Part shown: one piece after another, positions 2,821 to 37,630 of the stretch
Layout of the letters: the number at the start of each line of letters is the position of its first letter
How positions within the stretch are numbered: position 1 is the stretch's first letter
Origin: Candidatus Micrarchaeota archaeon
Lineage (GTDB): Archaea; Micrarchaeota; Micrarchaeia; Norongarragalinales; Norongarragalinaceae
Direction of reading: 5' to 3'
Length of the DNA stretch: 64,000 bases
Assembly (NCBI GenBank): GCA_016207165.1
Contig: JACQQD010000008.1
Coordinates: 112,386-176,385, forward strand
Position numbers and translations under genes: made by a program
The notes under the pieces: generated by a model
Databases searched by the model: none
What the model saw: only the letters and a program-made list of their open reading frames with translations
What the model was told of the DNA's origin: nothing

Positions 2821-2913
2821 TTTTCAAGCGTTTTTCTTTGGCTTTTTGTTGCTACTGCGGGGTGTACTCGCGGCCCGCAGTGTTTAAATAACCGGCTTGT
2901 TCTACTAAGAGTC

Positions 2914-4350
2914 ATGGCTTTCAGGGGTCTTTCCCGGCTTCACTGGGTCGTCTTGGCCATTGTTTTCGTTGCTGGCGCCTTATGGTATCTTTCTTCCACT
3001 TCTTCCGCTCCGGTCCGCGATTTAGGCGGTTCTGCCTCTCCAACCCCTTTGGCTGTTTCCGACCAGACGCTTTCCGGAACCCCAACGCGCATTTCGTATG
3101 AGGGTTCCACGGTTTCGCTTGAACGACACGTTTCCGAGGACGGCAAGACGCATACGTCGGTAGTTGAGAATTTGGGTGAGTCCACGGTGAGCGTGGGCAT
3201 CATCACGGTTGTTCCCAAGTCGCTGGCTTCCTCGGCTTCGCAACTGGGGCTTTCAAAAGATGTCGACGTTCTGGAGGACGACCCCATCGTTCTTCGCCTC
3301 GTTGACTTGGGTTCCGGTCAGAACGCGGCTCACAGCATTGTTTTGAAGTCAACGGCTGGACGTGACCGGGGCGTGTACCACATTTTTGTTTTGAATGCTA
3401 AGATGTGGTTGAACCAGTACACGGAGCAATTCGCGGAATTGGTGCAATTGCTGAAGACCTTGCCGGACAACGTTTCCAACGATGAGGCGAACCAGGTTTC
3501 GGATGCCTTCAGCCGTATTCTGAACGGAGACGGTGATCCCGCAGCCCGCATTGTTTCTGCGAAAGAGTACTTGGCGTCCAAGTCCACCGGCGCTGTCACG
3601 TTTGCGGTGGACGAGGACCAGCCGTTCGGCGACGTCCAAATGCAATTGTCTATTGACAACCCCGTTTCCTTGTATGCTTTGCCTTTGTCCAATGAGTTCA
3701 CCTCGGTGCTGGGTTTGGGTACGCACTTGGGCGTCCGCCAGGGTTATGCTCACGTGCAAGGCCAAGATTCCGCTTTCGGCGGTCTTGAACCTTCCTATTT
3801 GCAGGACTACGTCAAGTTGGTTCAGACTAAGGACGGCGGTTATGCGTTGTTGGCGGACTTGCAGGCTCCGGCGCGCCAATCCCTGCCGGAATTCTCGGTT
3901 TCCGGACGCGCGGAACTGTTCTTCTCTGGCCGGCCCAACACGGCTATTTTGGTTCCCATTCGCGTGGACTTGCTGCCGGCCGAGCACTTCGGCGACTCCA
4001 GCCTAGACACGCCATTTGACTTGATTGCGTACGATTGCGGCGACTTGCAAAACGAGTTGGGCATTGCGGAACACGCGCTTTTGACCAAGGCCGCGCAGGT
4101 GGACGAAGTCAACGACCAACTGCTTTCAGGAGACCAAGTCACGCTGGTTAGTTCCTTGCGCGTGAACTTGGAGCGTTTTGACGGCTTTCCCGAGGAATGC
4201 CAAGGCTTGCCGGAGATTTTTGAAGGAATTCCGTTCAAGGCCAGAAAAATCAACGTGGTGACTTACTCTTACAAGGAGGGCGAGGCCACGTGGGAGTTGG
4301 TGGAAGAAGAACCACCTACTTTTCGGGAAATCGAGGTTTCGGATTCATGA
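2914..4350 (+). CDS. N-terminally membrane-anchored or secreted surface protein, paralog of 5429..7189
   Basis: 478 aa. N-terminal TM helix (VVLAIVFVAGALWYL). Juxtamembrane PVRDLGGSASP and LEDDPIVL motifs are shared with the 586-aa paralog. Confidence 0.55.
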   Translation: MAFRGLSRLHWVVLAIVFVAGALWYLSSTSSAPVRDLGGSASPTPLAVSDQTLSGTPTRISYEGSTVSLERHVSEDGKTHTSVVENLGESTVSVGIITVVPKSLASSASQLGLSKDVDVLEDDPIVLRLVDLGSGQNAAHSIVLKSTAGRDRGVYHIFVLNAKMWLNQYTEQFAELVQLLKTLPDNVSNDEANQVSDAFSRILNGDGDPAARIVSAKEYLASKSTGAVTFAVDEDQPFGDVQMQLSIDNPVSLYALPLSNEFTSVLGLGTHLGVRQGYAHVQGQDSAFGGLEPSYLQDYVKLVQTKDGGYALLADLQAPARQSLPEFSVSGRAELFFSGRPNTAILVPIRVDLLPAEHFGDSSLDTPFDLIAYDCGDLQNELGIAEHALLTKAAQVDEVNDQLLSGDQVTLVSSLRVNLERFDGFPEECQGLPEIFEGIPFKARKINVVTYSYKEGEATWELVEEEPPTFREIEVSDS

Positions 4351-4378
4351 GTATCTTTTGTAACGAGGGGTTTGGAGG

Positions 4379-5272
4379 TTGTCGGGTATGACTTGGAAAA
4401 CGTTTGGAGTATTGGGTTTGGCTGCCGCACTTTTCTTGACGTTGGGAGCCTTTGTCGTAGGCGCGCCGGGAGGGACGCCCGCGGGCGGTCCTGCGACTCC
4501 GAAAATTATCTACTGTGCGTACAAAAGCCAGTCTTGGCTTCTTGACTCCTCTTTGTTGCAGAAGTATCCAGACGCCTGGTTGGTGGCGAACAACTACATT
4601 CGCTATCTGATGAAAGAAGGTGTCATTGCCGACGGTTCGGTGGGCACTTCGACGTCCGGCGGCGTGTACCATAAGGCTGATTACAACCCGGCTTTTGAAA
4701 ACCTGTATATTGATTTGTGTTACCGTTCGGGCGTGACTCAAAATAAACTTAGCCTTATTTCCAGTGAGGAATATGCTGAGCGGGCTTTGGCTGACTTGAA
4801 GTCCTTTGCCAAGTCGAACGTTCGGTCGCAAGCGCTTGATGACGCTTTGACGGATTTCCGCGTATGGGTCAACGATAATTTGGGAAAGGCCAAGACCAAA
4901 GTGGTTCGGGGGGCGCGGGATTTCTGGAATGATTGGTTGGATGCCCAAAAGCGGCTTGCCACTGAGACGAACGAGCAGGCTAAGCGCGTGTTGACCTTGG
5001 CTGTCCAAGTCAATAAAGAAATTGGTGCCAACGAGATGCTGTCTGATAAAGAACAAACCGAAAAGAAGACGCGTGTTGTCGTTATTACCGGTTTGATGAC
5101 TGAACTTATTAAGAGCAACCCAGGCATCACGGCTTCAGTAAAGGGCAAGTCGGACAAAGAAATCAAGGACATTTTCTACCGATATTTGCGGGATGAATCG
5201 GCCCCGGTAGATTCTGAAACCGTAAAGTCGCAGTTGCTCGCCCGTCTTACGGGCGGCCTAGTAGCGACTTAG
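4379..5272 (+). CDS. Hypothetical exported/membrane protein
   Basis: 297 aa. N-terminal hydrophobic segment (FGVLGLAAALFLTLGAFVVGA). Same operon and strand as its neighbours. Confidence 0.45.
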   Translation: MSGMTWKTFGVLGLAAALFLTLGAFVVGAPGGTPAGGPATPKIIYCAYKSQSWLLDSSLLQKYPDAWLVANNYIRYLMKEGVIADGSVGTSTSGGVYHKADYNPAFENLYIDLCYRSGVTQNKLSLISSEEYAERALADLKSFAKSNVRSQALDDALTDFRVWVNDNLGKAKTKVVRGARDFWNDWLDAQKRLATETNEQAKRVLTLAVQVNKEIGANEMLSDKEQTEKKTRVVVITGLMTELIKSNPGITASVKGKSDKEIKDIFYRYLRDESAPVDSETVKSQLLARLTGGLVAT

Positions 5273-5428
5273 CCTTTTCTTTCTTTTTTTCTTTTTCCTT
5301 CTTTTTCTGATTGGGTGCGAGCGTAGGCTTTGACTGGTTTCGGTTTGGGGGTTTGAACGGCAGTGGGGGGCGGGAATGCTTGCCGCGTTTGGAACTGTTT
5401 TTATTCAGGTTGCGCCTACTTTTAGCAC

Positions 5429-7189
5429 ATGTCGGACGCCTCTTTTTCGGTTGCATCGGACGGCGAAAAACCGTCGTTGCCGTTAATTGGTTTGGCGGTG
5501 TTGGTGGTGTTGGCTGGCGCCGTAATCTTTTTGTCGCAAAATTCCACCACCCCGTTTCGTGACTTGGGTTCTCCGGCGCCCCCGCAAGCCGCTTCGGTTT
5601 CTGGCGTTGTTTCTTCCACGGAGTCTTTTTCGCTTTCCGGTGCCCAAGTCCGAGTCGATTCCGAGGTCTTCGTGGTTGGCGAACGCATGACGGAAAAAGT
5701 GGCTCTTGAAAGTTCCAGTGCTTGGACGGGTTACTTCGTGGAAGTGATTCCCAAAGAGTTTGCGGCTTCGGCTTCAAAATTGGATTTGAATGGATATTCG
5801 GACGTCCAAGTTCTGGAGGATGACCCCGTGATTGCCGTTCCCATCGTGCTTTCGCCTGGTAGCCCGGTTTCGTTGTCGAAAACCGGTTCCAGCACCAATC
5901 TCCGCTTGCTTCACTTCCTGGTTTCGGACGACGCGCTGTCGTCGGATGCGTCCGAGCGGAAAGAACAGCTCAGGCAAATTGCGGCGGCGTTTGGCGCGTT
6001 GGACTTCGAGCAGTTGCTGGTGTTCACCGGAAGTGACATTGAGGCGTTTCAAGGGGATGTTTCGGGTTTGTTGAGCGATTCGTCGAAGACTTTTCCGGAG
6101 CGCGTGGCCGCGTTGAAAGGGAAAGTCTCGGCGCAGACGTCGTCGGAGAACGTGGAAGCTGCTTTGAAGAGAAGCGAGAACAAGATTTACTTGGAACTCA
6201 ATCCGTATGCGCCTTCTTCGACGTACCGGTTGCCCGTGGTTTCGACGCGAGGCTCTGTCGAATTGACCCGCAATGCGTTTGCGCCTTTGTTGAAAGTGTC
6301 TGGGTTGGACGTGCCCCGGCTTGAGACGAACGTCGGTTTTTCCCAAAGCGTTGAGACCGATCCGTGGCTTGTCGAGGTGGCCGTCGACGCGTCTCGGGTT
6401 GAAACTTCAGGGGGCAAACTGGTTCTGGACGGCGAGCCATTGATCAACGCATTGGGGTCTTTGGATGTGCAATTCACCCAGGAATTGGACGTCAAGCAAA
6501 GCATTCCGTTTTTGGTTGAGTTCACGCAGCCGCCGGTTGCCGATTACTTGGCGTTTTATGTTCCCGCCATTTATTACGGGTCCACTGACGTGCCCTTCTT
6601 GATGAGAAACGACGCATCCATGGATTTCCAAGTCAGCGTGTGCGGTCAAGAACAAATTTTGTCTGCTGAAACTTGGCAAGTTCTTTACGTGTCTCCGGAA
6701 AAAATCGACGACTGCCAAATCACGCAGGGAACGGAAACCCTGGTCTTGGGCGGAAAGACGGGGTTGACGGCGATGCCGGTTCGCGTGGATTTGTCCAAAG
6801 AGGATTATTCGCCGGATGTCAAGGCGGCTTTGTCTGGGAATGGATACTTGTTCCACCGGTATGCCGTGCCGCTTTCCGAGTCGCCGTCGGATTACTGCTC
6901 CAACCGCTTGTGTACCTGCGATGCGGCCGTTGAATCGACCAAGAATTTGGTTCTTCGGGCAACGGAATTGAACCGCCTTTACCAGGCAACGCATGCTTCG
7001 ACTTTGGTGCTTTTGGATTCGACGGAAGCCGGTTGTGAATACGAATTTTCGGAGGATGGGCGACTTTCGCTTGAACCCGGTCTAAATGTCGTCCAAGCCA
7101 CTTTTTCCGAATCCAATGCGCACGACCAGCCATTCACCGTCGTGGTTTCAACTGAAAAAATAAAGGGCGGGTTCTTCGGGGCGGACTAA
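5429..7189 (+). CDS. N-terminally membrane-anchored surface protein, paralog of 2914..4350
   Basis: 586 aa. TM helix (LIGLAVLVVLAGAVIFL) followed by TPFRDLGSPAPP and VLEDDPVIAVPIV motifs matching the 478-aa protein. Confidence 0.55.
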   Translation: MSDASFSVASDGEKPSLPLIGLAVLVVLAGAVIFLSQNSTTPFRDLGSPAPPQAASVSGVVSSTESFSLSGAQVRVDSEVFVVGERMTEKVALESSSAWTGYFVEVIPKEFAASASKLDLNGYSDVQVLEDDPVIAVPIVLSPGSPVSLSKTGSSTNLRLLHFLVSDDALSSDASERKEQLRQIAAAFGALDFEQLLVFTGSDIEAFQGDVSGLLSDSSKTFPERVAALKGKVSAQTSSENVEAALKRSENKIYLELNPYAPSSTYRLPVVSTRGSVELTRNAFAPLLKVSGLDVPRLETNVGFSQSVETDPWLVEVAVDASRVETSGGKLVLDGEPLINALGSLDVQFTQELDVKQSIPFLVEFTQPPVADYLAFYVPAIYYGSTDVPFLMRNDASMDFQVSVCGQEQILSAETWQVLYVSPEKIDDCQITQGTETLVLGGKTGLTAMPVRVDLSKEDYSPDVKAALSGNGYLFHRYAVPLSESPSDYCSNRLCTCDAAVESTKNLVLRATELNRLYQATHASTLVLLDSTEAGCEYEFSEDGRLSLEPGLNVVQATFSESNAHDQPFTVVVSTEKIKGGFFGAD

Positions 7190-7192
7190 TCC

Positions 7193-10100
7193 ATGCGTTT
7201 TTTTGTCTTCATTGTTTTCCTGGTGTTGGCGGGTTTGGCTTCATCCGCCGCCTTTGACTTGGCCAACCAACCCAAAGTCAGCGTATACATCGGCTCGGAT
7301 GCGTCCGTTCCCCATGCTTCCGGCGGGGCTTCGTACGCGTTTCGTTTGGCCGGCCCCGCCGTGGTCGGACCCAAGGGGATTGAGGCCAAAATCCAGGCCA
7401 CGCGTTCCGGCCAAGCCGAGTGTCCCGGTACAATCAAGGTCAACACGCAGGAGCAATACGCGTGCAACACGGTGTGCATTCGGTTGATTGGCTACCGGAC
7501 GCAAGCCGCCATTGATGCGGACAGCGCTTCCGGTCAACAACCTCTTTCCCAAGAGGACGCCATCGGCGAGCACGCTTTCATGCAAATAGGTTTGAAGTCA
7601 TCGGATGGCTCGTGTAATGTCGCGCCGACGGCCGCGGATGTCCAGGCCCTCGCGCAATCGTCGTCGAAAATGACTCCTGAAGAGCAGGCCCGCGCAAGCC
7701 AATCCATTTCCGGCGGCTATCACCGCTTCCTGAAAGACGTTTCAATCGATGTGGCGTTGCTGGCTGGCATCCGCTTCAAGCGGGCGACGCCGCAATACTT
7801 GGAGCACCCCCGTGAATTGACGGACTTGATGGCCAGCTTACACAAAGTGGAATACCTCGTCTTTCATGCCCCGACGTTTTTGGGCGTCCGCGATACCGTG
7901 GAACAATCCCAACTCGCGATTCGCGCGAATTCCGTGGAGTTGGCGTCAAGCGCCATTGCCTCCTGCGGCGCTCATCCCGCCTTTTTGGAGGAGTTTTCCG
8001 TGAATGGTTATGGGCCCAGTTCACTGTTTTCCGTTGGCCCCTCCGATGAATGGATTCGCTCGTCGTACAAGACGGCGGCTTCCTTGGATGAAGCCAAACA
8101 ATTTCTTTCCTGCATCGGGCAAATCAAGGGCGAAAAGGGGTACTTCTTTTTCGACCGGAAAATTGACCCCAAGACCATCACGCGCGCCTTGGAGGATCCA
8201 GGGTACACGTTTTTGACGGAGTACGACAAGTCCCGCCGGCAGGAAGGCAACCTGGATGTGACGCAAGCGGACCGCGTGGTTTTCGCCTACGAATTTGGCA
8301 AGTACCTGTATACGCAGAAAGAGGACGCCGACGCCATCAACGTGCTTTCCGCCGCGATTCTGGAAGCCGAGCGGTTGCGCATTCCCAACGTGGTTCACCC
8401 TCAAAGCGGTTTGGGACTCCAGAAAGACGCGTTTGACACCATCAACGCCGTTTTGGCGCGGCAGGGCCGGGAACCCATGGCGACGCTGGGCGGTTGCCTC
8501 AACGGCTTCTTGAATCCGCTTATCATCCTAAAACCTCTTCAGTTGCTCAAGATAGGTGCCAAGACCGGCGCCGTCATGTCTGCGGGCGGCCGCGTCATCC
8601 ACTTGGGCTTTGCTTTACAAGGCGGTCAGCAACTCATTGGCGCGGCCCAAACCGCGCAGGAGTCGGCTTTGGACTCCACCATTTCGGGTGTGTGCGGGAC
8701 GGTCATGTTTTTTGGCGGCCTGAAAGCGGGTCTGACGCGAGCCCCCGCGGCGTCTACGGAAATGGTTCGAACGCCTGAGACAGGCAAATGGGTGTCGCGT
8801 CCGGTCATTGGAGGCTCCAAGGCGGCGTCGGCGCGTGCCTTGGTCTTGAACAAGGAATTGGCGGATACCCCGGTTGAGTTGGTTGTACAACGCTTCACCA
8901 AGTTTTCAAGCCAGCTTAAACCCGGTGAATCCGCTGGAGAGTTTTTTGTGCGGTTGACGGTGAAAGGCAAAGAATTGACTATTCGCGTCACGCCCGAAAA
9001 CCATCGAGCCGTTTTGGCGGACGTGTTGCACATAAAGGCGACGCTGGCCATGGAAAAAGCAGACGCCGCCCAGTTTTCTCCCAGTTCCATCAAGGAGTTC
9101 CAGCAGGCGCTCTCGGAATTGTCGAAAGTGGATTCGGAGAAGGCATCATTCTACAACGAGTTCAATTTCCAGTTGAATGAACTGCTGAACGCCAAATCGA
9201 AGGAGGCCAAGCAGTCCATCCAGGAAAAACTCATCGGTTTGGTCTTCCAGCTATCCAAGCCTGAAAATAATCCCGCCAAGCAGCGCATCACGTTCTTGCA
9301 AGCGTTGCCTTCCGGCAAAGCCCAGACTCTGGATGGCTTGACCCCTGCCCAACCCCCTGGAACCGCTCAGCCCAGCGATCGCCGGACCCTCACGGAGCGC
9401 TTGCAAGCCGCGACGGAACTCTTCAAGAAGGCGAAAGAAAAGTTCGGCCGCAGCCTTTCGCGCGTGAAACAGTTCTTTTCGTTCAAGGACGGCCGGAGGA
9501 TTGAAGTTCCGGAAGAGGCGTCCAGCCAAATCGCGGACGCCCACGTGGCGGCGTCGGCGACCGGCGAAGCCCAACAAGTCGTTGTTGAGGTTTTGGTGAA
9601 CGGAAAGAAGCAGAACATGCCGGTGTTTGTTCGCCCTGGCGGAAAATTTTTGTCGATTGAGGAAATCAAGCAAGTGGCCAAAGACGGGAAAACCACGATT
9701 GCGGGAGTAGTTCGACTCGGGGAATTGGTCGTTTTTGATACCCGCCCCCAGAACCTGCGCTTTTTGCAAACTATTCGCCTCAATGACCTGCTTTCCGACT
9801 CCAGGCCCCTGCCTGCTCTTCGTGAATCGGTTACGGCGTTGGCGGATGCCGAAACCCTGTCAACTGATCCTTCAAGCGCCGGCAAGTCAACTCGTCCAGG
9901 TGACGCCGTCCAATTGCCTGAAACCCGCTGGAAGGATGCGTTGACGCGTCTGGGGTTAAGGCGAAATGGAAAATATGATGCCTACTACTTGGTTGAAGGT
10001 GCGGCGTTGCGGAATGGGGTTCCCCTCCGTTTCGAAGTGACTGGATCCGACAACCACGTCGGTTTTCTGGTTTTGAAAATCATCCGGAACAAAATTCCGG

Positions 10101-12775
10101 AAAGCATTCGCGACGCGACCATTGAAACGCTCAAGAAGGAGGGTTTCACGGAGCACTCCGACGGCACCGTGTTCTCGAAGGAAGTCGACGTCCGGGGCCA
10201 GCAGGTGCTCTTGGTTCCAAAGCCGGGAGCCACAGGCTTGGCCACCCCGATCTTGGATACCGTGGCACCGGAGTTCCAGGCCTTGATTAAAGAACTTTTG
10301 CCAAACGAAGGCCGCGCCCAACGCGTTGCAACCGTGGAGGAAGCCGAAGCCCTGCTTGGGGAAAAAGGTTTGCTGGCGGATCCAACCGCCAAGACCCAGG
10401 AAGGCGGCAACCCATTTGACCCCGGCAAACTTATTGAAGATCAAGCCGCCAAGGCCGAGCCCAATGCTCGTGAAGTGGCCGAGGAACAACGCCGGCTTGC
10501 GGAAGAGCAATCCAAAGTCGAACCGGTGCGCGCTCCAGTGCAAACCCAGGATGGGGTGTGGGAGGTTTCGGAAGGCCGTGGGTTGACTGTCGGTCGACTG
10601 ACCGCCAACCGAGTCGTTCTTCCATCCGAGTCCATTGCCCGCCGGCAAGGAACCTTTTCCGCGGATTCAAAGGACGGCGTCTTTTACGTCAACACTGGTT
10701 CAACGAGCGGATACAGGGTTATTCGGGGCCGCAACGAGCAGGAGTATCCGGGGAGCCACACGGAACCCGTTTCGCTTAAGGCGGGGGACTCCGTTGTATT
10801 CGCGGACGGTTCCCGCGTCGTCGTGGACTCTTATTCGCCGAAATCCGGTTCCGGGCCTGCGGTGGCCCGCTTCCGCGTTGAACCCGCGGAAACGTCTACG
10901 TCGCCCACCCTGGAAACTCTTCCGAGGACGAAAGGTGGTTCGTATTCGATTACGGGTTGCGCCGTTTGCCTGACGCAAAATCCGTTGGCCAGGGATTTCC
11001 TGGTTGACGAGGGCCAGAAGGCTTCGGTCGGACGCCAGGAAGGCAACACGATCATGTTTGAAAATGCGCATGTTAGCCGCGAGCAAGGAAGGTTCGACGT
11101 GGGCGCGCTGGGCGTTACTTACACGAACTTGGGCAGGTCGAACTTCTTTGCCGCTGTAATCGGGGGCCGCCGCCATGATTTTCCTCCGACGCACGGCGAG
11201 CCCATTTTGCTTGGCCCGTTTGATTCCATTCTTTACTTGAACGGCGAAAAAATCGTCGGCAGCATTACCGTTCAAGAGTTCGCGAAAGCCGCGTCGACGG
11301 GCAGTTCCCGGCTTTTGTTGCGCGTGGAGCGCGCTGGCTTCACTTCAACTCCGGAAACAGAGGGGGGGCCCGCAGTGACTCCGGAAAAAGCCGAGGCCAA
11401 CCGCGAGGCGTTTGAAAAGCCACCGGCGCGTGCGTCCGGCGCCAAGCCCAAACTTGAAGTGAAAAAAGCCGGAGTGGCCGAACAGGCCAAAGTGGGGGAA
11501 ACGGTATCCCAAGATTCTCTTTTGAGCATAGAACAAGGTGACCGGTCGGTGGATGTCGTCGCAGATGGCGTAGGCGGCGCGCTTGGAGGCAGAGTCGCGT
11601 CGCAAGCCTTTGTAAATGGGATTAATACCCGCTTTCCAGAAATGACGGATCAACTTTCGTTGGAAGAAGCCTTTAATGGAGCTGCAGGAGACACCGTCAG
11701 CGCGTTACGCCCTGTTTTAGAAGCAAACAAGTTTGACCGTGAGACTGGCGAGCCGTTGAATCCGCAGGGCGGCACCACGGCGTTGGTTCTTCTGATCAAC
11801 GGACGTAAAGCGCACCTCGCGGGCATCGGGGATGGTGCGTTGTTTATGATTCGCGGCGGTAATATTGAACTGTTATCGGAAATACACAACGACGCGTACG
11901 GCGCCCGCGGTCAGGTTGCGGGTTTGAGACCTGAGGACGCTTTCGTTGACAGAACCGAAGCCGGCGTAAATACGATGCGTAACTCCATTACCCGATCGAT
12001 TGACGCCGGGATATACGACGGGGAGTTCGAATCCTCTCAAGGCATCCCTCGGGGTCAGCATTTCTCTCGTGAATTCTCCGTACAAGACGGCGACCGGTTT
12101 ATTCTCGTTTCAGATGGCGTGGCGGATGTGGTCACGCCGACCGAGATTCGCGAGATTGGCAGACGGGGTACGCCGGAACAAGCCGCCCAAGCAATCTTGG
12201 CCTTGGCCCGACAGCGCATCTCCGGCCGGCATGAAGGCAACTTTGAAGGTCGCAAAATTCCCATCGACGGCAAGAACGACGACATTTCCGTCATCGTGCG
12301 GGATGTCGGCGAGCGGCCGGCTTCTGAGGAATCCTCTTCGGAGCCTTCGCGGTCCGAACCTGCGGTGGCGCGTTCGGCTCCTCCGGCAAGCATGGATTTG
12401 GAGCCGTTTACCCGGCTGATGCCTGCTGGGCCGACTTATTCCATTCGCATTGGCCGCGACGCCGTAAATGATGTGGTGTTGCCCAATGACTTCGTCAGCC
12501 GCTATCAGGGGGTGTTGCATTCGGATTCCTCCGGTCGGTTGTTTTACGAAAACGAAGGCGGATCCAATTCGTTTTGGCTTGGTCGTGGAGGCAGTTTGAC
12601 GGAGTTGTCGGGTCGCCGAACCATTGAACTGCGTGTTTTAGACTCGATTTTCTTTGCCGATGGAAGCCGAGTGTACTTCCGTCACCTTAACCCCGCTTAC
12701 CCCGGTTCGCTGCCAAGCGCGGTTTTCGACTTTTTCCCGAAATCCGTGGATGCCCCCGAATTTCAACCGACGTGA
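7193..12775 (+). CDS. Giant (1860 aa) signal-peptide protein with multiple FHA domains and a PP2C-type Ser/Thr phosphatase domain
   Basis: N-terminus MRFFVFIVFLVLAGLASSAAF. FHA-like segments at ~10.57-10.80 kb, ~10.95-11.26 kb and ~12.43-12.70 kb (IGRDAVNDVVLPNDFVSRYQGVLH). PP2C motifs DGVGG, GGTTA, GDGALF, SDGVADV and NDDISVIV at ~11.53-12.30 kb. Start is 4 nt after the stop of the upstream gene. Confidence 0.7.
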   Translation: MRFFVFIVFLVLAGLASSAAFDLANQPKVSVYIGSDASVPHASGGASYAFRLAGPAVVGPKGIEAKIQATRSGQAECPGTIKVNTQEQYACNTVCIRLIGYRTQAAIDADSASGQQPLSQEDAIGEHAFMQIGLKSSDGSCNVAPTAADVQALAQSSSKMTPEEQARASQSISGGYHRFLKDVSIDVALLAGIRFKRATPQYLEHPRELTDLMASLHKVEYLVFHAPTFLGVRDTVEQSQLAIRANSVELASSAIASCGAHPAFLEEFSVNGYGPSSLFSVGPSDEWIRSSYKTAASLDEAKQFLSCIGQIKGEKGYFFFDRKIDPKTITRALEDPGYTFLTEYDKSRRQEGNLDVTQADRVVFAYEFGKYLYTQKEDADAINVLSAAILEAERLRIPNVVHPQSGLGLQKDAFDTINAVLARQGREPMATLGGCLNGFLNPLIILKPLQLLKIGAKTGAVMSAGGRVIHLGFALQGGQQLIGAAQTAQESALDSTISGVCGTVMFFGGLKAGLTRAPAASTEMVRTPETGKWVSRPVIGGSKAASARALVLNKELADTPVELVVQRFTKFSSQLKPGESAGEFFVRLTVKGKELTIRVTPENHRAVLADVLHIKATLAMEKADAAQFSPSSIKEFQQALSELSKVDSEKASFYNEFNFQLNELLNAKSKEAKQSIQEKLIGLVFQLSKPENNPAKQRITFLQALPSGKAQTLDGLTPAQPPGTAQPSDRRTLTERLQAATELFKKAKEKFGRSLSRVKQFFSFKDGRRIEVPEEASSQIADAHVAASATGEAQQVVVEVLVNGKKQNMPVFVRPGGKFLSIEEIKQVAKDGKTTIAGVVRLGELVVFDTRPQNLRFLQTIRLNDLLSDSRPLPALRESVTALADAETLSTDPSSAGKSTRPGDAVQLPETRWKDALTRLGLRRNGKYDAYYLVEGAALRNGVPLRFEVTGSDNHVGFLVLKIIRNKIPESIRDATIETLKKEGFTEHSDGTVFSKEVDVRGQQVLLVPKPGATGLATPILDTVAPEFQALIKELLPNEGRAQRVATVEEAEALLGEKGLLADPTAKTQEGGNPFDPGKLIEDQAAKAEPNAREVAEEQRRLAEEQSKVEPVRAPVQTQDGVWEVSEGRGLTVGRLTANRVVLPSESIARRQGTFSADSKDGVFYVNTGSTSGYRVIRGRNEQEYPGSHTEPVSLKAGDSVVFADGSRVVVDSYSPKSGSGPAVARFRVEPAETSTSPTLETLPRTKGGSYSITGCAVCLTQNPLARDFLVDEGQKASVGRQEGNTIMFENAHVSREQGRFDVGALGVTYTNLGRSNFFAAVIGGRRHDFPPTHGEPILLGPFDSILYLNGEKIVGSITVQEFAKAASTGSSRLLLRVERAGFTSTPETEGGPAVTPEKAEANREAFEKPPARASGAKPKLEVKKAGVAEQAKVGETVSQDSLLSIEQGDRSVDVVADGVGGALGGRVASQAFVNGINTRFPEMTDQLSLEEAFNGAAGDTVSALRPVLEANKFDRETGEPLNPQGGTTALVLLINGRKAHLAGIGDGALFMIRGGNIELLSEIHNDAYGARGQVAGLRPEDAFVDRTEAGVNTMRNSITRSIDAGIYDGEFESSQGIPRGQHFSREFSVQDGDRFILVSDGVADVVTPTEIREIGRRGTPEQAAQAILALARQRISGRHEGNFEGRKIPIDGKNDDISVIVRDVGERPASEESSSEPSRSEPAVARSAPPASMDLEPFTRLMPAGPTYSIRIGRDAVNDVVLPNDFVSRYQGVLHSDSSGRLFYENEGGSNSFWLGRGGSLTELSGRRTIELRVLDSIFFADGSRVYFRHLNPAYPGSLPSAVFDFFPKSVDAPEFQPT

Positions 12776-12905
12776 ATTCCTGAGGGGTAGAAGCGTTCCG
12801 GTTCATTTTGTGATAATGAACGAGTATAATTCGAGCCAATTCAGCTTTTTTGTATGATTCAAGATATCAAAAATGATGTCTTTTTCCGTTTGGGTCGCCG
12901 CGACG

Positions 12906-13655
12906 TCATTTCGGCATTTTCTGGATGGCGAGGCGGGCGGCGTCATCAAAATCCACGGGGTTGGGGCTCAAGGCGTTCATTTCCGTTTTCCAGATTTTTT
13001 CGGTTTGCCGTACGCGTTTTTGGAATTCATTGGCGTTGAAGGTTTTTTCGTAGTACGTCAGTTTGCCGTTGACGAGTTCTTTGTCGGGGACGGCGTTTCT
13101 TCGTAAAAGAAAGTAGAGGTCGTACAGGTCGCGGGCGGATTGGCGGGTGAGGATGGCGCGGATTTTTTCGGCGGCGATTTCCGTTGCGTCCATGGTCTTG
13201 AGTGCGTAGGGGAACACGTCGGGATACGGCGGTTGAATGCTGGTGATGACGGGTTCCAGACGCGTTTTTTCGCGTAGGCTGAATTCAAGTTGCACCGTGC
13301 ATTCGCTGATGGGTTTTCCCATGTAAAGCGGGCCGCGGACGCGCAGTTTGGCGGTTTTCGAAACGGGGGTTTGACTGGTTTTCCACGTGGGTTCGGAAAA
13401 GCCCGCTGAAGCCAAAAACGCGGAGGCATTATCTGCGTCGGGTTGTTCTTCCTGGTCCGCCAGCGTAAAGTCCAAGTCCTCGGAGTAGCGGGGAAGCTGG
13501 AAGGCTTTCTGGAGGCAGGTGCCTCCCTTGAAGACGCCGGCAAACCCGGTGCGCGACAAGTACGACAAAAGCCAGTGCTGGACGTAGTCTTTCTCTTTTT
13601 GGCCTAATGTGAATCCCGGCGGCCCGTATTGGTCGAGTCCTTTCCGGTCAAGCAT
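12906..13655 (-). CDS. abiEii: AbiEii-type nucleotidyltransferase toxin (DUF1814)
   Basis: 249 aa. GGTCLQKAF..YSEDLDF nucleotidyltransferase motif. Overlaps the upstream AbiEi-like gene by 8 nt. Confidence 0.65.
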   Translation of the reverse strand: MLDRKGLDQYGPPGFTLGQKEKDYVQHWLLSYLSRTGFAGVFKGGTCLQKAFQLPRYSEDLDFTLADQEEQPDADNASAFLASAGFSEPTWKTSQTPVSKTAKLRVRGPLYMGKPISECTVQLEFSLREKTRLEPVITSIQPPYPDVFPYALKTMDATEIAAEKIRAILTRQSARDLYDLYFLLRRNAVPDKELVNGKLTYYEKTFNANEFQKRVRQTEKIWKTEMNALSPNPVDFDDAARLAIQKMPK

Positions 13656-14214
13656 GGCGCATCAGGTTTTTCAGGCGTTTGTTGGCGGCGGCGCTGGACA
13701 AGTAAGGCGGAATTTTTCCGGCTTTGACGTGGGCCAGTGCTTCCATGATGATGGCCGCCGGACAGCTTTTGGGGATGCTGATGGCGTCGGCCACGGCTTT
13801 TTCGGGTGTGGCCAGGAACAGGTTGTCTTTTTTCTCGTAGGCCCGGAACTGGTTTTTAGGGACGCGGTATTCCTGGACGGGTGTTCCAAGGACCTGATAC
13901 TTTTTTGCGTTGCGCGTGACGGCAAGCTGGATGGTGCGGTGGGGTTGTGTGGTCAATCCGTGCAAGTGCAATGCGGTGTGGAAAGACACGTAGGCGGGGG
14001 TTGAAATCTCGCAGGCAACGGCTTCATGCATGGCATCGGAAAACGCCCACCAACCGCGATGGACCAAAAAAAGGACGCCTTTTTTGTGGAGGCGATGCAG
14101 GTGCAGACGCGCGTACGCCGGGTTTTGGGCCAAGGCGACGAATTCTTTGGTGCGGAAGGCGGCGCGCCCGGAACCCCGAAGAATTTCTATGATTTTATTG
14201 CTTTTCATTATCAA
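13648..14214 (-). CDS. abiEi: AbiEi-like antitoxin/transcriptional regulator
   Basis: 188 aa. Gene order and overlap with the AbiEii gene. N-terminal wHTH-like region. Confidence 0.55.
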   Translation of the reverse strand: MIMKSNKIIEILRGSGRAAFRTKEFVALAQNPAYARLHLHRLHKKGVLFLVHRGWWAFSDAMHEAVACEISTPAYVSFHTALHLHGLTTQPHRTIQLAVTRNAKKYQVLGTPVQEYRVPKNQFRAYEKKDNLFLATPEKAVADAISIPKSCPAAIIMEALAHVKAGKIPPYLSSAAANKRLKNLMRHA

Positions 14215-18151: not shown

Positions 18152-19144
18152 CTATTTCAATAGTTCGGCTTTCTTCAAGGCGTTGAGGTCTTTGGATCGC
18201 GTCAGAAACATTGTGGTTTTCAGTTCGTGCTTGTATTTCTGGATGGCTTGCCGCACGCCCGAAACGCCGGCGTGTTGTTGGGCTTTGATGAAGGGGGACG
18301 CGGCGCCAGCCAGGGTGGCGCCCAATCGGATGGCTTTGGCGGCTTCCAACCCGGAGCGAATGCCGCCGGAGGCAATTAATGGGACTTTGACGGCTTTGGC
18401 GCATTGGGCTAGGGCTGAAGCGGTGGGGATGCCAAAGTCCCAGAACACGTCTCCGCTTAATCCGTGGCGGTGGTGTTCCACGGCGGACCAGGACGTACCG
18501 CCGGTGCCGGACACGTCGATGGCTTTCACGCCGGCTTTTTGGAGTTCCTTGGCGATGGTGACGTTGATGCCGGCTCCGACTTCTTTGGCGATGACTGGCA
18601 CCCGGAGGGCGTCACAGGTGTCCGCGATTTTTGCGAGGATTCCGTTCCAGTTCTTGTCGCCTTCGGGTTGCACGGCTTCCTGCAAGGGATTCAGGTGGAT
18701 GCAGAGCGCGTCGGCATTAATGGCGTCCACGAGCCACTGGATTTGCTTGAGGGAGTATTGCTTGAGTTGGTAGGCTCCGATGTTGCCGCATAGGAAGAGG
18801 CCTTTCTGTTTGACGGCGTAGGTTTTGGAAAGCGTGGGGTCCTCCAGCATGGCGCGTTGGCTGCCGACGGCGAAAACGATGCCTTCTTGGGCGCAGGCTT
18901 GCGCGATTTCGGAATTGATTTTTTGGGCGTCGGTATATCCTCCAGTCATGCCGGTGACCATGAATGGCGCTTTGAGGGCGTGGCCTAAAAACGTGGTTTC
19001 CAAGTTGACGGCGTGGAAGTCTTGTTCCGGCAAGGCATAGTAATTGAATCGGATGGCGTCAAAGCCGTTGCTTTGGTGGCCTTGGACGTCTTGGTTCAAG
19101 ACGATGTCGACGTGTTCGCCTTTGCGTTTCTGGGTTTGCTTCAT
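18152..19144 (-). CDS. fni: Isopentenyl-diphosphate delta-isomerase type 2 (FMN-dependent)
   Basis: TIM-barrel IDI-2 motifs (FMVTGMTGG, VSGTGGTSW, ASGGIRSG). Start taken at MKQTQKRK (19144). The longer ORF would overlap the upstream gene. Confidence 0.75.
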   Translation of the reverse strand: MKQTQKRKGEHVDIVLNQDVQGHQSNGFDAIRFNYYALPEQDFHAVNLETTFLGHALKAPFMVTGMTGGYTDAQKINSEIAQACAQEGIVFAVGSQRAMLEDPTLSKTYAVKQKGLFLCGNIGAYQLKQYSLKQIQWLVDAINADALCIHLNPLQEAVQPEGDKNWNGILAKIADTCDALRVPVIAKEVGAGINVTIAKELQKAGVKAIDVSGTGGTSWSAVEHHRHGLSGDVFWDFGIPTASALAQCAKAVKVPLIASGGIRSGLEAAKAIRLGATLAGAASPFIKAQQHAGVSGVRQAIQKYKHELKTTMFLTRSKDLNALKKAELLK

Positions 19145-19160
19145 ATGACGGTTTACTCCT

Positions 19161-20270
19161 TCAGGCTTTTTCAAGGCGTAGGCCGGCGTTGTCGATGGCC
19201 AAGTCAAATACGGCGAGGCCTTGTTCAAGTAAGTGGCTTTTGAGGTTCTCGGCTTTTTCGGTGGATAGGCACAAGGCGGCGATGGAGTCCAGGCCCCCGG
19301 CTCCGGGGCCTTTGGCGACGAAGGCGCCGTGTTTTGGGGCGCCTGAAAGGATTTTTTCAAGTGGCGGGGGTTGGATGGGGGCCCCGCTTTCTTCTCCGAG
19401 TTTTGTGGTGAGGCTCCATCCTTCGTTGAACCACTTCTTGAATTCGTTGAGGTTTTCCGGCGAGAAATCGGTTTGCAGTTCGTCGAGGTACCCCATGGCG
19501 TTGACGTTGGCTTCGTTTAAGCGTTTGACGAGGTCGTGGTATTGTTCGGCGTGCATTTTTTTCCAGGCGTTCACGGTTTTGACCATGGACGTCGTGGACG
19601 CGCTGTCTTTGGGGAAGGTGGCAAAAACGAGTTGGAACAGATCGGGTGTAGCCAACGGCCTAACCAGGTAGTCCCAGGTTTCATCCGCGTTTTTTGGGAA
19701 GGATTCCAGGGTTTCGGGGGTGAAGCGCTGGTATTCGCAGGAGCCGAAACACGCCGCCGCCACGTCGTAGCCTGACCCGATTTTGCCTTGGGCCTGCGCG
19801 TGCGCGGCTTGCGCCACGTGGTGCGTGGTTTTGAGGTCGGAAATGTCGTGGAACGCCAGCAGCCCGTGGGTCATGGCGGCGGTGGCGGCGGCGGAAGAAC
19901 CCAACCCGCTTTTTCCGGCGGTGACGTTGAAGGCCGCATCCGTTCGGGTGTTGAGGTGGAATGGTTTTGGCGTGATGCCTCTGCGTTCCAGGTATTGGAA
20001 TGTTTTTTCGATGGCGGATTGAGCGAACTTGGTTTCCGGCGCGCCGCGTTCCAGTTCCAGTCGCCCGTTTTTCCACTGGGCGTGCGTGTCGACGTGGAAT
20101 TGGGGGATTTGGATGCGGATGGTTTCCGCGGAACTGACTTCCGCGTGCACGCGGGCGGAAACGGTGGACAAGTAACTGGTGTTGCCTTTTTCCAGGACGC
20201 TGTAGCCGCCAAGCCAACCGATTTTTCCGGGGGCGGAAGCTGAAATCATGTGGTTGGAACCTTGGTTCAC
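19161..20270 (-). CDS. Phosphomevalonate kinase (GHMP kinase, ERG8-like)
   Basis: SAPGKIGWLGGYSVLE N-terminal motif and GKSGLGSSAAATAA ATP-binding loop. 4 nt overlap with the upstream MVD gene. Confidence 0.6.
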   Translation of the reverse strand: MNQGSNHMISASAPGKIGWLGGYSVLEKGNTSYLSTVSARVHAEVSSAETIRIQIPQFHVDTHAQWKNGRLELERGAPETKFAQSAIEKTFQYLERRGITPKPFHLNTRTDAAFNVTAGKSGLGSSAAATAAMTHGLLAFHDISDLKTTHHVAQAAHAQAQGKIGSGYDVAAACFGSCEYQRFTPETLESFPKNADETWDYLVRPLATPDLFQLVFATFPKDSASTTSMVKTVNAWKKMHAEQYHDLVKRLNEANVNAMGYLDELQTDFSPENLNEFKKWFNEGWSLTTKLGEESGAPIQPPPLEKILSGAPKHGAFVAKGPGAGGLDSIAALCLSTEKAENLKSHLLEQGLAVFDLAIDNAGLRLEKA

Positions 20271-21331
20271 GTAAAGACGATTCCTTTTGATTGGTTGAAG
20301 GCGTGGGGGATGACGTTTCCGGATTCATCGAGCAGGTGGCCGGTTTCAAGGCGTTTGGGGCCGTTTCCAACGCCGCAGACCAGCGTCTCGGTGACCCCTG
20401 GAATTTCTTCCAGCATTTTTTGGACGGCTCCGGCTTGGTTTTTCGTGGTGTAGACGTGGGCGTTGGGTCCGGCGTCAAAGGTGTACGCCGCCTGGATGCC
20501 GTTGGCGTTAAACTCGTTCACGGCGTGCATGACGTCTTTGGAGTGGTCGTTGAGGTACAAAATCGGGGGCCACGTGTCAAGCATCACGGCGTGCATGTTG
20601 CTGGACTCGCGCATGGTTAATTCGCCGAAGGTTTCAAAGTCTTTGGCTAGAACGGCTTTTTTCATGTCGTGGATGAGTCCGGGCAAGTACGCCAGGCGGG
20701 CTTTGTAGAGCTGGCTTGTGGCCACAGTCTGTTTCATGCCGGCTCGTGACGAGACTTTCTTTTTGGTGGCGTCAACGACGGCAATGACGTTGCGGATTTC
20801 CGGCCAATGCGTTGCCGGAGCGACTTGTTCGGCAAACGAGTCCGAGCCGTCGGCTTTGACGCCTTTCTTCCATTCCACGAATCCTCCCAGAACGGAGCGG
20901 CAGGCGGATCCGGAGCCCAGGCGCGCGAGCATGGAGGTTTCCCGGGGATTTAGTTTTAGTCCGGCGGCCATGGACGCGGCGCAGGAAAGCGCGGCAAGTC
21001 CTGCGGCGCTGGAGGCAAAGCCGGCGGCGGTGGGGAAACAGTTCAACGACGCGATGTGGGCTTTGTCTTGGATTCCGGCTTTTCGGCGGATGACGTCTAA
21101 AAGCTGTAGGCGTTCCGCGGTTTCCTTGTCTGAAAGATCGATTTTTTGGCCGTTGAGCCAGAACGAGTCGGCCTTGAATTTTTTCGAGTAGACGACCGTG
21201 GTGCGGGTCTTGAGGGTCTCGTCCATGGTAAAGGAAAGCGATCCTTCGGTGGGCAGGATGAGTTTCTCGTCGCGTTTGCCCCAGTACTTGACCACGGCAA
21301 TGTTGGGCGTGGCTTCAAAAGTGGCTCTCAT
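20267..21331 (-). CDS. mvaD: Diphosphomevalonate decarboxylase
   Basis: NIAVVKYWGKRD and PTAAGFASSAAG motifs. Start at MRATFEA (21331), 4 nt overlap with the upstream HAD gene. Confidence 0.75.
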   Translation of the reverse strand: MRATFEATPNIAVVKYWGKRDEKLILPTEGSLSFTMDETLKTRTTVVYSKKFKADSFWLNGQKIDLSDKETAERLQLLDVIRRKAGIQDKAHIASLNCFPTAAGFASSAAGLAALSCAASMAAGLKLNPRETSMLARLGSGSACRSVLGGFVEWKKGVKADGSDSFAEQVAPATHWPEIRNVIAVVDATKKKVSSRAGMKQTVATSQLYKARLAYLPGLIHDMKKAVLAKDFETFGELTMRESSNMHAVMLDTWPPILYLNDHSKDVMHAVNEFNANGIQAAYTFDAGPNAHVYTTKNQAGAVQKMLEEIPGVTETLVCGVGNGPKRLETGHLLDESGNVIPHAFNQSKGIVFT

Positions 21332-22020
21332 GGCGTCTTCACGTAGGATAGGATGTCTTGCGGCTTTTTTAAGGTCGTCACGTCTTCGTCGGGAGTCGGC
21401 GGCAATCCGTAGCCCCACTCCGCAAAAAACAATCGGGCGCGGCCTTGCAGGCTTTTCAGGACGCGGGGCATGTCGTCGACGAACCACACGGTTTCTTCCT
21501 TGAGGCTTTCCACTTGCCGTTTTTTGAGTTCGTCGCTGGAGGCCGAGAAGCGGCTGGAGCCTACCACGCGGTCAAAGTAAGGGAACAATTGCTTGGCGGC
21601 GAGGTATTTTTTTAGGCTGGAGTCGTCGCGCGCCGAGACCACGGCCATGCGTGGGCCTTGGTTTTTGAGTTGTTTCAGGGTATCGATGATGCCGGGATAA
21701 ACGGGGTTGTGGGGGAACTGTTTTTCCAGAAGCAAGTCGCGGTGCTTGTGGTAGAGTTCGCGAAGCTCCAGAACGCCGTTTTTTCGCTCCAGGCCGACGC
21801 GGTGGAGGTTTTCGCGGGTGTACGGAACGTGTTGTTGCCGGGCGAAGTACTGGATGAAGAAGTCGGTGGCTTGCACCGCGGTTTTTCGTTCGACTCGGAA
21901 TTGTTTCAGGCTCAAGGGTTCAAGGCCGAATTCTTCCAGCGCCGCGTTGTAGCTGGCAAAGCATTCGTGGACGGTGTCCACCAAGACGCCGTCAAAATCC
22001 CAGGCTAAAAGCATTTGCAA
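21328..22020 (-). CDS. HAD-superfamily hydrolase
   Basis: DxDGVLVDT motif I (WDFDGVLVDT). 230 aa. Co-operonic with MVD/PMK/IDI2. Confidence 0.6.
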   Translation of the reverse strand: MQMLLAWDFDGVLVDTVHECFASYNAALEEFGLEPLSLKQFRVERKTAVQATDFFIQYFARQQHVPYTRENLHRVGLERKNGVLELRELYHKHRDLLLEKQFPHNPVYPGIIDTLKQLKNQGPRMAVVSARDDSSLKKYLAAKQLFPYFDRVVGSSRFSASSDELKKRQVESLKEETVWFVDDMPRVLKSLQGRARLFFAEWGYGLPPTPDEDVTTLKKPQDILSYVKTP

Positions 22021-22054
22021 AAACCCTTAAACCTTTGCGTACAGTTTTCCGTAA

Positions 22055-23101: not shown

Positions 23102-23117
23102 CTTTTTTTGGGTTGGC

Positions 23118-23516
23118 TTAGTGAACGCGTTGAATGCGTTCGACGTGGTCAAAGTCCGAGTCAAACGAGAGGATTTCTCGGAGGCCTCGTTTGTTGGTGG
23201 CATGGACGCTGAGGGCGTCGGAGAGGCTGAATCGGCCGTATTTCTTCATCAGTTTGCCGGCGGCTTCCAGGTCTTGGACGCTTACAGATTCAATGGCGAT
23301 GTTTTTCGCGTTCAGAAATGCCTGCAGTCCTTCGTGGGCGGCTTGCGGCCCGTCCCGGCTGAAAAGATACGTTACGGCTTCTTCGATGACGTGCGTGGTG
23401 ACGACGAGGCGTTCATTGTCTTTGACGATGTCCTCGATGAGTTCTTTTGCTCGGTCATGATGGGCGTCGCTTTTCCGGAACAATGCGATGAAAAGCGATG
23501 CATCGGCGGTCTTCAT
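23118..23516 (-). CDS. vapC: VapC-like PIN-domain toxin
   Basis: 132 aa. PIN acidic residues. Immediately follows the small antitoxin-like gene. Confidence 0.65.
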   Translation of the reverse strand: MKTADASLFIALFRKSDAHHDRAKELIEDIVKDNERLVVTTHVIEEAVTYLFSRDGPQAAHEGLQAFLNAKNIAIESVSVQDLEAAGKLMKKYGRFSLSDALSVHATNKRGLREILSFDSDFDHVERIQRVH

Positions 23517-23795: not shown

Positions 23796-23811
23796 ATATT
23801 TTTTATACTTT

Positions 23812-24072: not shown

Positions 24073-24130
24073 GTTATTTCACGTAATCTCATTTTATTTC
24101 ATGTAATAAAACGGTTTCGGTGGCTGGTGG

Positions 24131-24562: not shown

Positions 24563-24579
24563 CACACGTCGTGGTGGGT

Positions 24580-37606: not shown

Positions 37607-37630
37607 GATAGCAGATATTTAGGGAAACGA

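Follow-up and report, generated by a model that had tools for sequence, protein, structure and literature searches.

A giant Micrarchaeota protein with a signal-peptide-like N-terminus, three FHA modules and a PP2C phosphatase domain as a candidate exported protein

Introduction

Does a protein that joins FHA modules to a PP2C phosphatase act inside the cell that makes it, or beyond its membrane? The question is raised by an open reading frame (ORF) of 1,860 uninterrupted codons, at positions 7193..12775 of the forward strand, in a 64,000-nucleotide stretch of contig JACQQD010000008.1 (the window hereafter). The DNA comes from a metagenome-assembled genome (MAG) of Candidatus Micrarchaeota, which belongs to the DPANN archaea. 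The product of 1,860 amino acid residues starts with MRFFVFIVFLVLAGLASSAAF and will be referred to as the giant protein. Three genes, g1, g2 and g3, precede it, and all four products are NCBI proteins of the same archaeon. A preliminary description of the locus proposed an exported protein with several FHA modules and a complete PP2C core, encoded at the end of a surface-protein operon.

In KAPP, an FHA domain docks a PP2C phosphatase on phosphothreonine-bearing targets (PMC2553837), and DRA0334 of Deinococcus radiodurans is a bacterial FHA-PP2C fusion (bioRxiv 10.64898/2026.01.23.701218). The cultured Micrarchaeota organism Mia14 depends on a Thermoplasmatales host, has large strain-specific secreted surface proteins and is devoid of RIO-family kinases (PMC5498576). 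Here, we propose that the giant protein is a lineage-specific protein exported by the Sec pathway, whose FHA-PP2C cassette would act on phosphoproteins of a host. For this whole chain of steps, we estimate a probability of roughly 40%.

Results

Three FHA modules and a PP2C domain in the last 740 residues

The last 740 residues of the giant protein comprise three paralogous FHA modules and a PP2C domain of bacterial type. The Pfam FHA model (PF00498, cutoff 20.7 bits) matches residues ~1132-1203 with 28.1 bits and residues 1751-1798 with 27.7 bits. A third FHA-like stretch, at residues ~1278-1317, is below the cutoff (12.3 bits, E 0.24). Since a leave-one-out profile made from modules 1 and 3 recovers this stretch at 34.2 bits, while 300 shuffled copies give 3.2 bits at most, module 2 is, by profile comparison, a genuine FHA paralogue. 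No fourth FHA module was found in a profile scan of the giant protein. The joint profile of the three modules, compared with the PDB, has only FHA domains as its top matches (ArnA, CT664, EmbR and Rv1747), with marginal E-values from 0.025. The Gly-Arg pair is kept in all three modules (R1135, R1281 and R1755). In the alignment of the three modules, an S-N loop can be seen in modules 2 and 3, and module 1 is ambiguous at this place.

The PP2C domain is matched by PP2C_2 (PF13672) at residues 1436-1650 with 55.5 bits (cutoff 24) and by PP2C (PF00481) with 31.7 bits (cutoff 20.3). Its motifs are DGVGG at position 1458, GGTTA at 1526, GDGALF at 1546, SDGVAD at 1640 and NDDISV at 1695. Residues D1441, D1458 (in DGVGG) and D1641 (in SDG) align with the metal-binding aspartates of PppA and tPphA, and the fourth metal-binding aspartate, D1696/D1697, was identified by inspecting the motif GKNDDISVIV. 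The best PDB alignments are bacterial (PppA 6jkv, tPphA, Stp1 and PstP), with DGxGG and SDG conserved. The domain is apparently intact and constitutes a putatively active phosphatase. The NCBIfam model Stp1_PP2C (Stp1/IreP) matches with an E-value of 1.3e-15, but because its score of 57.6 bits is far below the equivalog cutoff of 230, the giant protein is not an Stp1 orthologue by this measure. Among the PHROGs, one unannotated family, phrog_5650, lies roughly over the PP2C region (segment residues 288-554, about residues 1408-1674 of the protein).

Judged by profile scores and key residues, the giant protein belongs to the FHA and PP2C superfamilies. The several FHA modules and the complete PP2C core of the preliminary description are borne out by the Pfam and NCBIfam matches, by the leave-one-out profiles and by all the motifs that it had quoted; in the profile search that it had suggested, both kinds of domain are above the curated thresholds. 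A hidden kinase domain was not found in the middle region of the protein, where Pfam gives no match at E < 1 and HRD and DFG motifs are absent.

Predicted topology of the giant protein

Topology, including possible transmembrane (TM) segments, was judged indirectly, by the anatomy of the N-terminus, by a hydrophobicity calibration, by cysteines and by N-x-S/T sequons. The N-terminus of the giant protein, correctly described from the start as signal-like, has Arg at position 2, a hydrophobic h-region of 14 residues, FFVFIVFLVLAGLA, and the c-region S17-S18-A19-A20, followed by F21-D22. It fits the class I Sec criteria, which are a positive n-region, an h-region of 7-15 residues, small residues at -3 and -1 and no Pro at +1. 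With its short core and its AxA-like end, it has the look of a cleavable Sec signal and not of an anchor. In g1-g3, by comparison, the hydrophobic cores have 18-22 residues and are anchor-like. A comparable N-terminus is present elsewhere in the window, in an ORFan protein of 530 residues encoded at 30280-31872 (MHDRSAWHILAVLILFASAASAAP). The C-terminal flank of the segment opens with an Asp and has no K/R cluster, and the two flanks differ in charge by about -3. By the positive-inside rule, this difference indicates an N-in/C-out orientation. The flanking charges thus speak against the reverse signal anchor that, as the preliminary description had pointed out, would leave the domains in the cytoplasm.

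Three other signals were considered and rejected. There is no twin arginine as in a Tat signal, no K/R-G/A cleavage motif ahead of the h-region as in a class III (pilin-type) signal, and the C-terminus is not hydrophobic, as it would be in PGF-CTERM or another C-terminal sorting signal.

Hydrophobic segments were scored by a simple sum of the biological hydrophobicity scale, calibrated on proteins of this genome. Genuine TM helices (from DUF2070 and a GT2 enzyme) score mostly from -4.6 to +3; a small number of weaker peaks, seemingly shoulders of neighbouring helices, reach as far as 6.6. The N-terminal segment of the giant protein is in the range of these helices, at -1.9. Two weak hydrophobic peaks, at residues 428-446 and 492-514, score 5.2-6.9. 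Segments of soluble enzymes of the same genome (MVD, thiolase and HMG-CoA reductase) score 3.4-6.9, and because both peaks lie within this range, they give no positive evidence for a second TM helix. After this calibration, no second TM-grade segment is found in the giant protein.

Weak evidence comes from the cysteines. Their number is even in all four proteins (2 in g1, 2 in g2, 6 in g3 and 10 in the giant protein), and residues 511-1860 contain 0.15% Cys, as compared with 0.3-2.05% in the cytoplasmic enzymes that served for comparison.

None of the 58 Asn of the giant protein is part of a sequon, where 7.6 sequons would be expected, and zero was reached in none of 2,000 shuffles. Control motifs (reversed S/T-x-N, adjacent N-S/T, Q-x-S/T and D-x-S/T) are at expectation. 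The FHA/PP2C part alone has 0 sequons as compared with 3.7 expected (P 0.016). In a rough gene set drawn from the window and from an extra 2.7 kb of L001, the 49 proteins that lack a hydrophobic segment have 44 sequons for 45.9 expected, whereas in the 7 proteins whose N-terminus has a TM segment or signal there are 4 for 18.0 expected, with 18 occurrences of the reversed motif. Without the giant protein, this exported-type class still has 4 sequons for 10.5 expected. The proteins of the class are encoded at 2914-12775, 30280-31872 and 44841-45485 of the window and at 778-1341 of L001. Sequons can be under selection only in proteins that come into contact with the oligosaccharyltransferase, at the outer side of the membrane. 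Because its sequon avoidance resembles that of exported and not of cytoplasmic proteins, the whole giant chain, cassette included, behaves as an exported-type protein. The avoidance may extend to the whole genome in this Micrarchaeota lineage; our literature search found no description of sequon avoidance in archaea.

The protein could otherwise be a cytoplasmic, membrane-tethered, KAPP-like regulator that docks on and dephosphorylates the cell's own phosphoproteins near the membrane, held by the N-terminal segment as an uncleaved reverse anchor or by a TM helix at residues 495-515, with the kinase encoded in another part of the genome. KAPP, at the plasma membrane, and DRA0334 are intracellular FHA-PP2C fusions and set a precedent for this (PMC2553837; bioRxiv 10.64898/2026.01.23.701218), and DPANN SPEARE proteins have an intracellular enzyme domain behind a TM helix (PMC6642349). 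The peak at residues 492-514, predicted to be helical at residues 495-515 and followed by a K/R-rich stretch, would suit such a layout of ectodomain, TM helix and cytoplasmic enzyme, and eight of the ten cysteines come before residue 510. However, residues 495-515 score 5.2, no better than the soluble-enzyme segments, and the flanking charges of the N-terminus, its h-region of just 14 residues and its small-residue c-region all point the other way. So does the lack of sequons, in the whole protein and in the FHA/PP2C part, as cytoplasmic proteins have them at expectation. We regard a cytoplasmic location of this kind as somewhat unlikely, and we put the predicted export of the giant protein at roughly two in three.

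Searches for homologues and structural relatives

A word-indexed protein search with the full-length giant protein found no homologue, and neither did an exhaustive HMMER search with residues 1-1120 among 1.84 billion cluster representatives. Among 5.8 billion proteins, residues 1121-1860 have no significant homologue and g3 matches only itself. No homologous locus was found in the genome contig collection, which was queried with the giant protein and the neighbouring beta-CASP gene, and the metagenome contig collection gave nothing with the giant protein and the g1/g3 alignment as queries. Viral contigs, as well as plasmids and phages (searched by tblastn), gave no match. For residues 1-1120 and for g1-g3, no homologue came from any of the searches that were able to return one. 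A homologous operon, which the preliminary description had advised to look for, was not found in these searches. The 90%-identity cluster of the giant protein is represented by an unrelated ENA fragment of 47 residues. This bad representative probably explains why the giant protein itself is absent from the searches, and because its own cluster is mis-represented, relatives behind other bad representatives may be missed. PADLOC has no match for any of the four proteins.

Single-sequence AlphaFold2 models of the N-terminal region, which the preliminary description wished to compare with adhesins, have a mean pLDDT (predicted local distance difference test) of 39 for residues 1-560 and of 47 for residues 516-1120. 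They are poor because homologues are lacking, and only a helical bundle at residues ~560-700 reaches 60-84. Foldseek, run against the PDB, returned generic helical bundles only (E > 0.3), and these were discarded as uninformative. Pfam detects no adhesin-type domain (PKD, CARDB, laminin-G or Ig) in the protein. In the literature search, no paper connected such an FHA protein with Micrarchaeota or DPANN archaea. PP2C is part of the automatic NCBI name; no description was found of a protein that joins a signal peptide to a giant ORFan region and three FHA modules.

Integrity of the ORF

The NCBI pipeline PGAP calls the ORF identically, as MBI4360967.1, "protein phosphatase 2C domain-containing protein", on a contig of 181 kb, and the ORF is borne out by this annotation. 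In the Logan assembly of run SRR12113385, which no paper found in the literature mentions, a contig of 18.4 kb is identical to the window over the shared 15,644 nt, the whole ORF and its junctions included. The GC content at third codon positions (GC3, 0.56-0.72) and the codon usage are even along the ORF. Because an independent assembly is identical and the composition is even, the ORF is without sign of an assembly chimera, which the preliminary description had named as a possible weakness.

The stop codon of g3, TAA at 7187-7189, is followed by TCC and by the ATG of the giant ORF in the same frame (7187-7195). The gap is small, as was described, and has 3 nt, not 4 nt. A read-through fusion of g3 and the giant ORF was considered in view of the common frame and rejected, since the stop is TAA and both gene callers keep the genes apart. 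Read-through of this TAA would turn the signal-like segment into a second TM helix and leave the FHA/PP2C part in the cytoplasm.

The ORF could also be an artefact: it may be chimeric through misassembly, or come from a decayed or fused gene whose expression does not yield a single protein. The lack of homologues would agree with this, and so would the position of g3 and the giant ORF in one frame, separated by a TAA and a single codon. Yet the Logan contig, the even composition and the PGAP call are all against it, a 5.6-kb open frame at 57% GC is not expected by chance, and the residues of the FHA and PP2C domains are intact. We consider an artefact very improbable.

Upstream genes and transcription units

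In each of the proteins g1, g2 and g3, a single N-terminal segment of 18-22 residues is strongly hydrophobic and a stretch rich in S/T/P or P/G/T comes after it, in agreement with their earlier description as N-anchored. The juxtamembrane motifs that two of them were said to share belong to a larger homology, a domain of ~135 residues common to g1 and g3 (36% identity, E 1e-13). None of the three has a Pfam, NCBIfam, PADLOC or PHROG match. The most likely start of g2 is the ATG at 4388, behind a GGAGGT Shine-Dalgarno sequence, and not position 4379 as first given.

TATA-like boxes are located before g1 and g3, and a T-rich tract of 35 nt after g2. Because of these elements, g1-g2 and g3-giant are probably separate transcription units, and the single operon that had been proposed is doubtful. 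The giant gene is, by its 3-nt spacer, predicted to be translationally coupled to g3. A sigma-70 promoter and terminator scan gave nothing useful, its model being not applicable to archaea. The features of the locus are collected in Table 1.

Table 1 Features of the giant gene and its upstream neighbours, in window coordinates.
Feature	Position	Strand	Remarks
TATA-like box TTTAAATA	2883..2890	+	~27 nt upstream of g1 ATG; possible promoter, possible leaderless transcript
g1, MBI4360964.1, 478 aa	2914..4350	+	N-terminal anchor, S/T/P-rich stalk, ORFan ectodomain; first ~150 aa paralogous to g3
g2, MBI4360965.1, 294 aa	4388..5272	+	N-terminal anchor, P/G/T linker, basic helical-looking ORFan; GGAGGT 7 nt upstream of ATG
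T-rich tract after g2, 35 nt	5275..5309	+	resembles archaeal oligo-T terminator; putative
TATA-like box TTTTTATTC	5398..5406	+	~27 nt upstream of g3 ATG; putative
g3, MBI4360966.1, 586 aa	5429..7189	+	N-terminal anchor, domain common to g1; TAA 3 nt before giant ORF, in frame
Signal-peptide-like N-terminus, aa 1-20	7193..7252	+	n-region MR, 14-aa h-region FFVFIVFLVLAGLA, c-region SSAA
ORFan head region, aa 21-426	7253..8470	+	contains 6 of the 10 cysteines
Gly-rich, weakly hydrophobic predicted helices, aa 427-515	8471..8737	+	not TM-grade after calibration
ORFan middle region, aa 516-1119	8738..10549	+	helices and strands mixed; pLDDT 60-84 only at aa ~560-700 (helical bundle)
FHA module 1, aa 1120-1216	10550..10840	+	G1134-R1135 kept; Ala1149 for conserved Ser
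FHA module 2, aa 1263-1363	10979..11281	+	below Pfam cutoff, paralogue of modules 1 and 3; G1280-R1281, S1295-R1296
PP2C/PPM phosphatase domain, aa 1436-1705	11498..12307	+	D1441, D1458, D1641, D1696/D1697
FHA module 3, aa 1739-1834	12407..12694	+	G1754-R1755, S1769-R1770 kept
AT-rich intergenic region, oligo-T run after TGA stop	12776..12905		convergent with abiEii gene

Genomic surroundings

As the preliminary description had stated, the window has no cognate Ser/Thr kinase gene: no protein kinase (Pkinase/RIO) was found in the ~55 window ORFs scanned, and no ORF of at least 80 codons has an HRDxKxxN motif. The rest of the window is archaeal, with mevalonate-pathway genes, FEN1, DUF2070, NMD3 and phosphoenolpyruvate synthase; the closest relatives of this FEN1 are in Pyrococcus and Desulfurococcus.

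Directly downstream of the giant gene, and convergent to it, are the AbiEii/AbiEi genes (12906-14214, minus strand), with strong PADLOC and Pfam matches. Upstream of the four-gene cluster there are a DUF3368 PIN-like gene with a ribbon-helix-helix partner and a further small pair with a helix-turn-helix protein (708-1547 and 1867-2642, both on the minus strand). The GC3 of the four genes is 0.59-0.65, as compared with 0.67-0.80 in housekeeping genes. This arrangement suggests that the four-gene cluster, placed between toxin-antitoxin modules, is a variable genomic island. The giant protein might then be a component of a mobile or conflict island, in which FHA and PP2C regulate an intracellular defence or addiction system. 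The flanking toxin-antitoxin genes and the lower GC3 would fit, and triads of FHA, PP2C and kinase are known from conflict systems (PMC7159879). But PADLOC has no match among the four proteins, there is no NTPase, vWA, kinase or effector domain, and viral, plasmid and phage collections have no match. The signal peptide and the N-anchored partners indicate the envelope instead. A role in such an island appears quite improbable.

Other parts of the window have features of their own. A compact mevalonate cluster (18152-28717) includes an FMN-dependent IDI2-like (type-2 IPP isomerase-like) gene, a GHMP kinase, an MVD-like decarboxylase and HMG-CoA reductase, together with a trio of HMG-CoA synthase, thiolase and OB-fold genes. 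DPANN genomes are often described as devoid of lipid-precursor synthesis, which makes the cluster notable. The signal-peptide ORFan at 30280-31872 adjoins three large adjacent ORFans (33268-39465, minus strand; 373, 606 and 586 residues), which have no Pfam match, no Cys, an isoelectric point above 9 and no hydrophobic segment. A 108-nt tRNA at 51393-51500 (plus strand; Rfam 52.4 bits), missed by ARAGORN, probably contains an intron and fits an archaeal genome. Around ~52000-56000, the GC content is 0.47-0.50 as compared with ~0.56 elsewhere; this patch has a Fic/DOC gene (54523-55476, minus strand, E 2.4e-18) and several ORFans, and might be another acquired island. Ahead of the start of the window, on L001 (1398-2996, plus strand), there is an ORF of 532 residues in which Pro, Arg, Gly and Gln are extremely abundant, with the run GGGGPGGGDGGGGH and no Pfam match. 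Two small ORFs with signal-like N-termini adjoin it.

Discussion

In the mechanism that we propose, a short, cleavable-looking signal peptide would carry the giant chain through the membrane by the Sec pathway. The first ~1,100 ORFan residues, composed of a cysteine-bearing head, Gly-rich weakly hydrophobic helices and a mixed middle region, would then lie at or beyond the cell surface. They could be held there by the anchored proteins g1-g3, and together with these proteins they would serve attachment. The last 740 residues would form a reader-eraser cassette, in which the three FHA modules dock on phosphothreonine proteins and the Mn/Mg-dependent PP2C domain dephosphorylates them. There is no ATP-driven phosphorylation outside the cell. 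Because of this, and because the window is devoid of a kinase, the substrates would belong to another cell, and the most likely ones would be phosphoproteins of the partner, the host archaeon, at the contact site.

Several points weigh against this mechanism. The proposal rests on a single MAG. The lack of homologues leaves it without support from conservation or covariation, and the AlphaFold2 models are uninformative. To our knowledge, every characterised prokaryotic FHA or PP2C domain is cytoplasmic, so that the prior for a location outside the cytoplasm is low. The sequon avoidance was noticed post hoc and rests on just 7 exported-type genes. Archaeal surface proteins are usually enriched in sequons, the opposite direction to what is seen here, and no AglB gene was seen in the window. 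The charges around the N-terminal segment of g3 give no clear orientation (net -1 before it and 0 after it). In the FHA modules, Gln takes the place of the canonical His throughout, and the Ser of the Ser-Arg pair, kept in modules 2 and 3 (S1295 and S1769), is Ala1149 in module 1.

These substitutions also bear on whether an exported protein could use the two folds for something else. In such a case, a surface or adhesion protein would bind through FHA domains in a phosphorylation-independent way, and its PP2C domain would be structural or a phosphatase of non-protein substrates, for instance in phosphate scavenging. All the evidence for export applies equally here, the changes of His to Gln and of Ser to Ala are in line with it, and Micrarchaeota typically have giant surface proteins that differ from strain to strain (PMC5498576). 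Against it, the four metal aspartates of the PP2C domain and the phosphothreonine-binding GR and SR residues of modules 2 and 3 are kept, which argues for maintained catalysis and phosphothreonine binding, and Pfam finds none of the adhesin-type domains named above. We regard such a repurposing as unlikely.

A stronger form of the host-directed mechanism is a secreted effector that would read and erase phosphothreonine marks inside the host archaeon and so shut down its Ser/Thr-kinase signalling. The ORFan N-terminal region would bind the host, and the helices at residues 427-515 would aid the crossing of, or insertion into, the host membrane, like the translocation regions of AB-type toxins. 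The idea of a host-directed effector is plausible and fits the DPANN lifestyle, but an effector of this stronger form seems unlikely to us.

The giant protein can be compared with several known systems. As in KAPP and DRA0334, an FHA reader and a PP2C domain are found in one polypeptide, and their docking logic is expected to be alike. KAPP has an N-terminal hydrophobic segment, and so does the giant protein. However, the giant protein has three FHA modules that flank the PP2C domain, not one, is 3-4 times larger, and has an ORFan N-terminal region of 1,100 residues. Its predicted topology is opposite to that of KAPP, with a signal peptide and the domains outside, so that the KAPP-type cytoplasmic orientation of the anchor is not what the sequence predicts. 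By analogy, it would work like a KAPP-type, FHA-guided phosphatase. It is not placed in that family, because there is no detectable sequence relationship (among 5.8 billion proteins), the number and order of the FHA modules differ, the predicted anchor orientation is the opposite and the window holds no kinase partner.

The best PDB matches of the PP2C domain, PppA of the Pseudomonas type VI secretion system (T6SS), tPphA, Stp1 and PstP, share its metal motifs, in weak alignments (E 1e-6). These proteins have 240-500 residues and cytoplasmic catalytic domains, with kinase or secretion genes adjacent; the giant gene has no such partner genes in the window. As to the T6SS threonine-phosphorylation pathway (PpkA/PppA/Fha1), neither a Hanks kinase nor T6SS structural genes are present in the ~55 ORFs scanned. 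ArnA of Sulfolobus acidocaldarius, an archaeal phosphothreonine reader, is the top PDB match of the three-module FHA profile, at a marginal E-value of 0.025. A small zinc-finger/FHA protein of the cytoplasm, ArnA regulates the archaellum together with a vWA partner and kinases. This context is absent around the giant gene.

Like the SPEARE proteins of Nanohaloarchaeota and the strain-specific secreted surface proteins of Mia14, the giant protein is a very large, lineage-specific multidomain protein of a host-dependent DPANN archaeon, predicted to be mostly extracytoplasmic, in which a part of unknown or variable nature is joined to an enzyme domain (PMC6642349, PMC5498576). In Pfam it has no serine protease, laminin-G, PKD, CARDB or restriction-endonuclease domain, and no internal TM-grade segment is found that would divide an outer from an inner part, as in SPEARE proteins. 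Because all the domains that define SPEARE are absent, it is by its domain content not a SPEARE protein. Phospho-signalling cassettes are not known from these giant surface proteins.

PP2C and FHA domains that are delivered into another cell are found in PP2C-hn of the Toxoplasma rhoptry and in Chlamydia CT664, respectively. The FHA domain of CT664 is among the PDB matches of the giant FHA profile. Both proteins belong to other kingdoms and use other secretion routes, and neither joins the two domains; the likeness is in concept only.

The molecular basis by which DPANN archaea attach to their hosts and exploit them is largely unknown, and very little is known of effector proteins passed from one archaeon to another. 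If the giant protein were cytoplasmic, it would be merely an unusually large archaeal KAPP-like phosphatase. If the sequon avoidance were genome-wide, it would provide a cheap indicator, read from sequence, of the DPANN proteins that cross the membrane. If the giant protein is exported, FHA/PP2C signalling would extend beyond the producing cell in a prokaryote, and the protein would be a concrete candidate for host manipulation by Micrarchaeota. Should it act as an effector inside the host, it would be the first phospho-signalling effector described for a symbiosis between two archaea.

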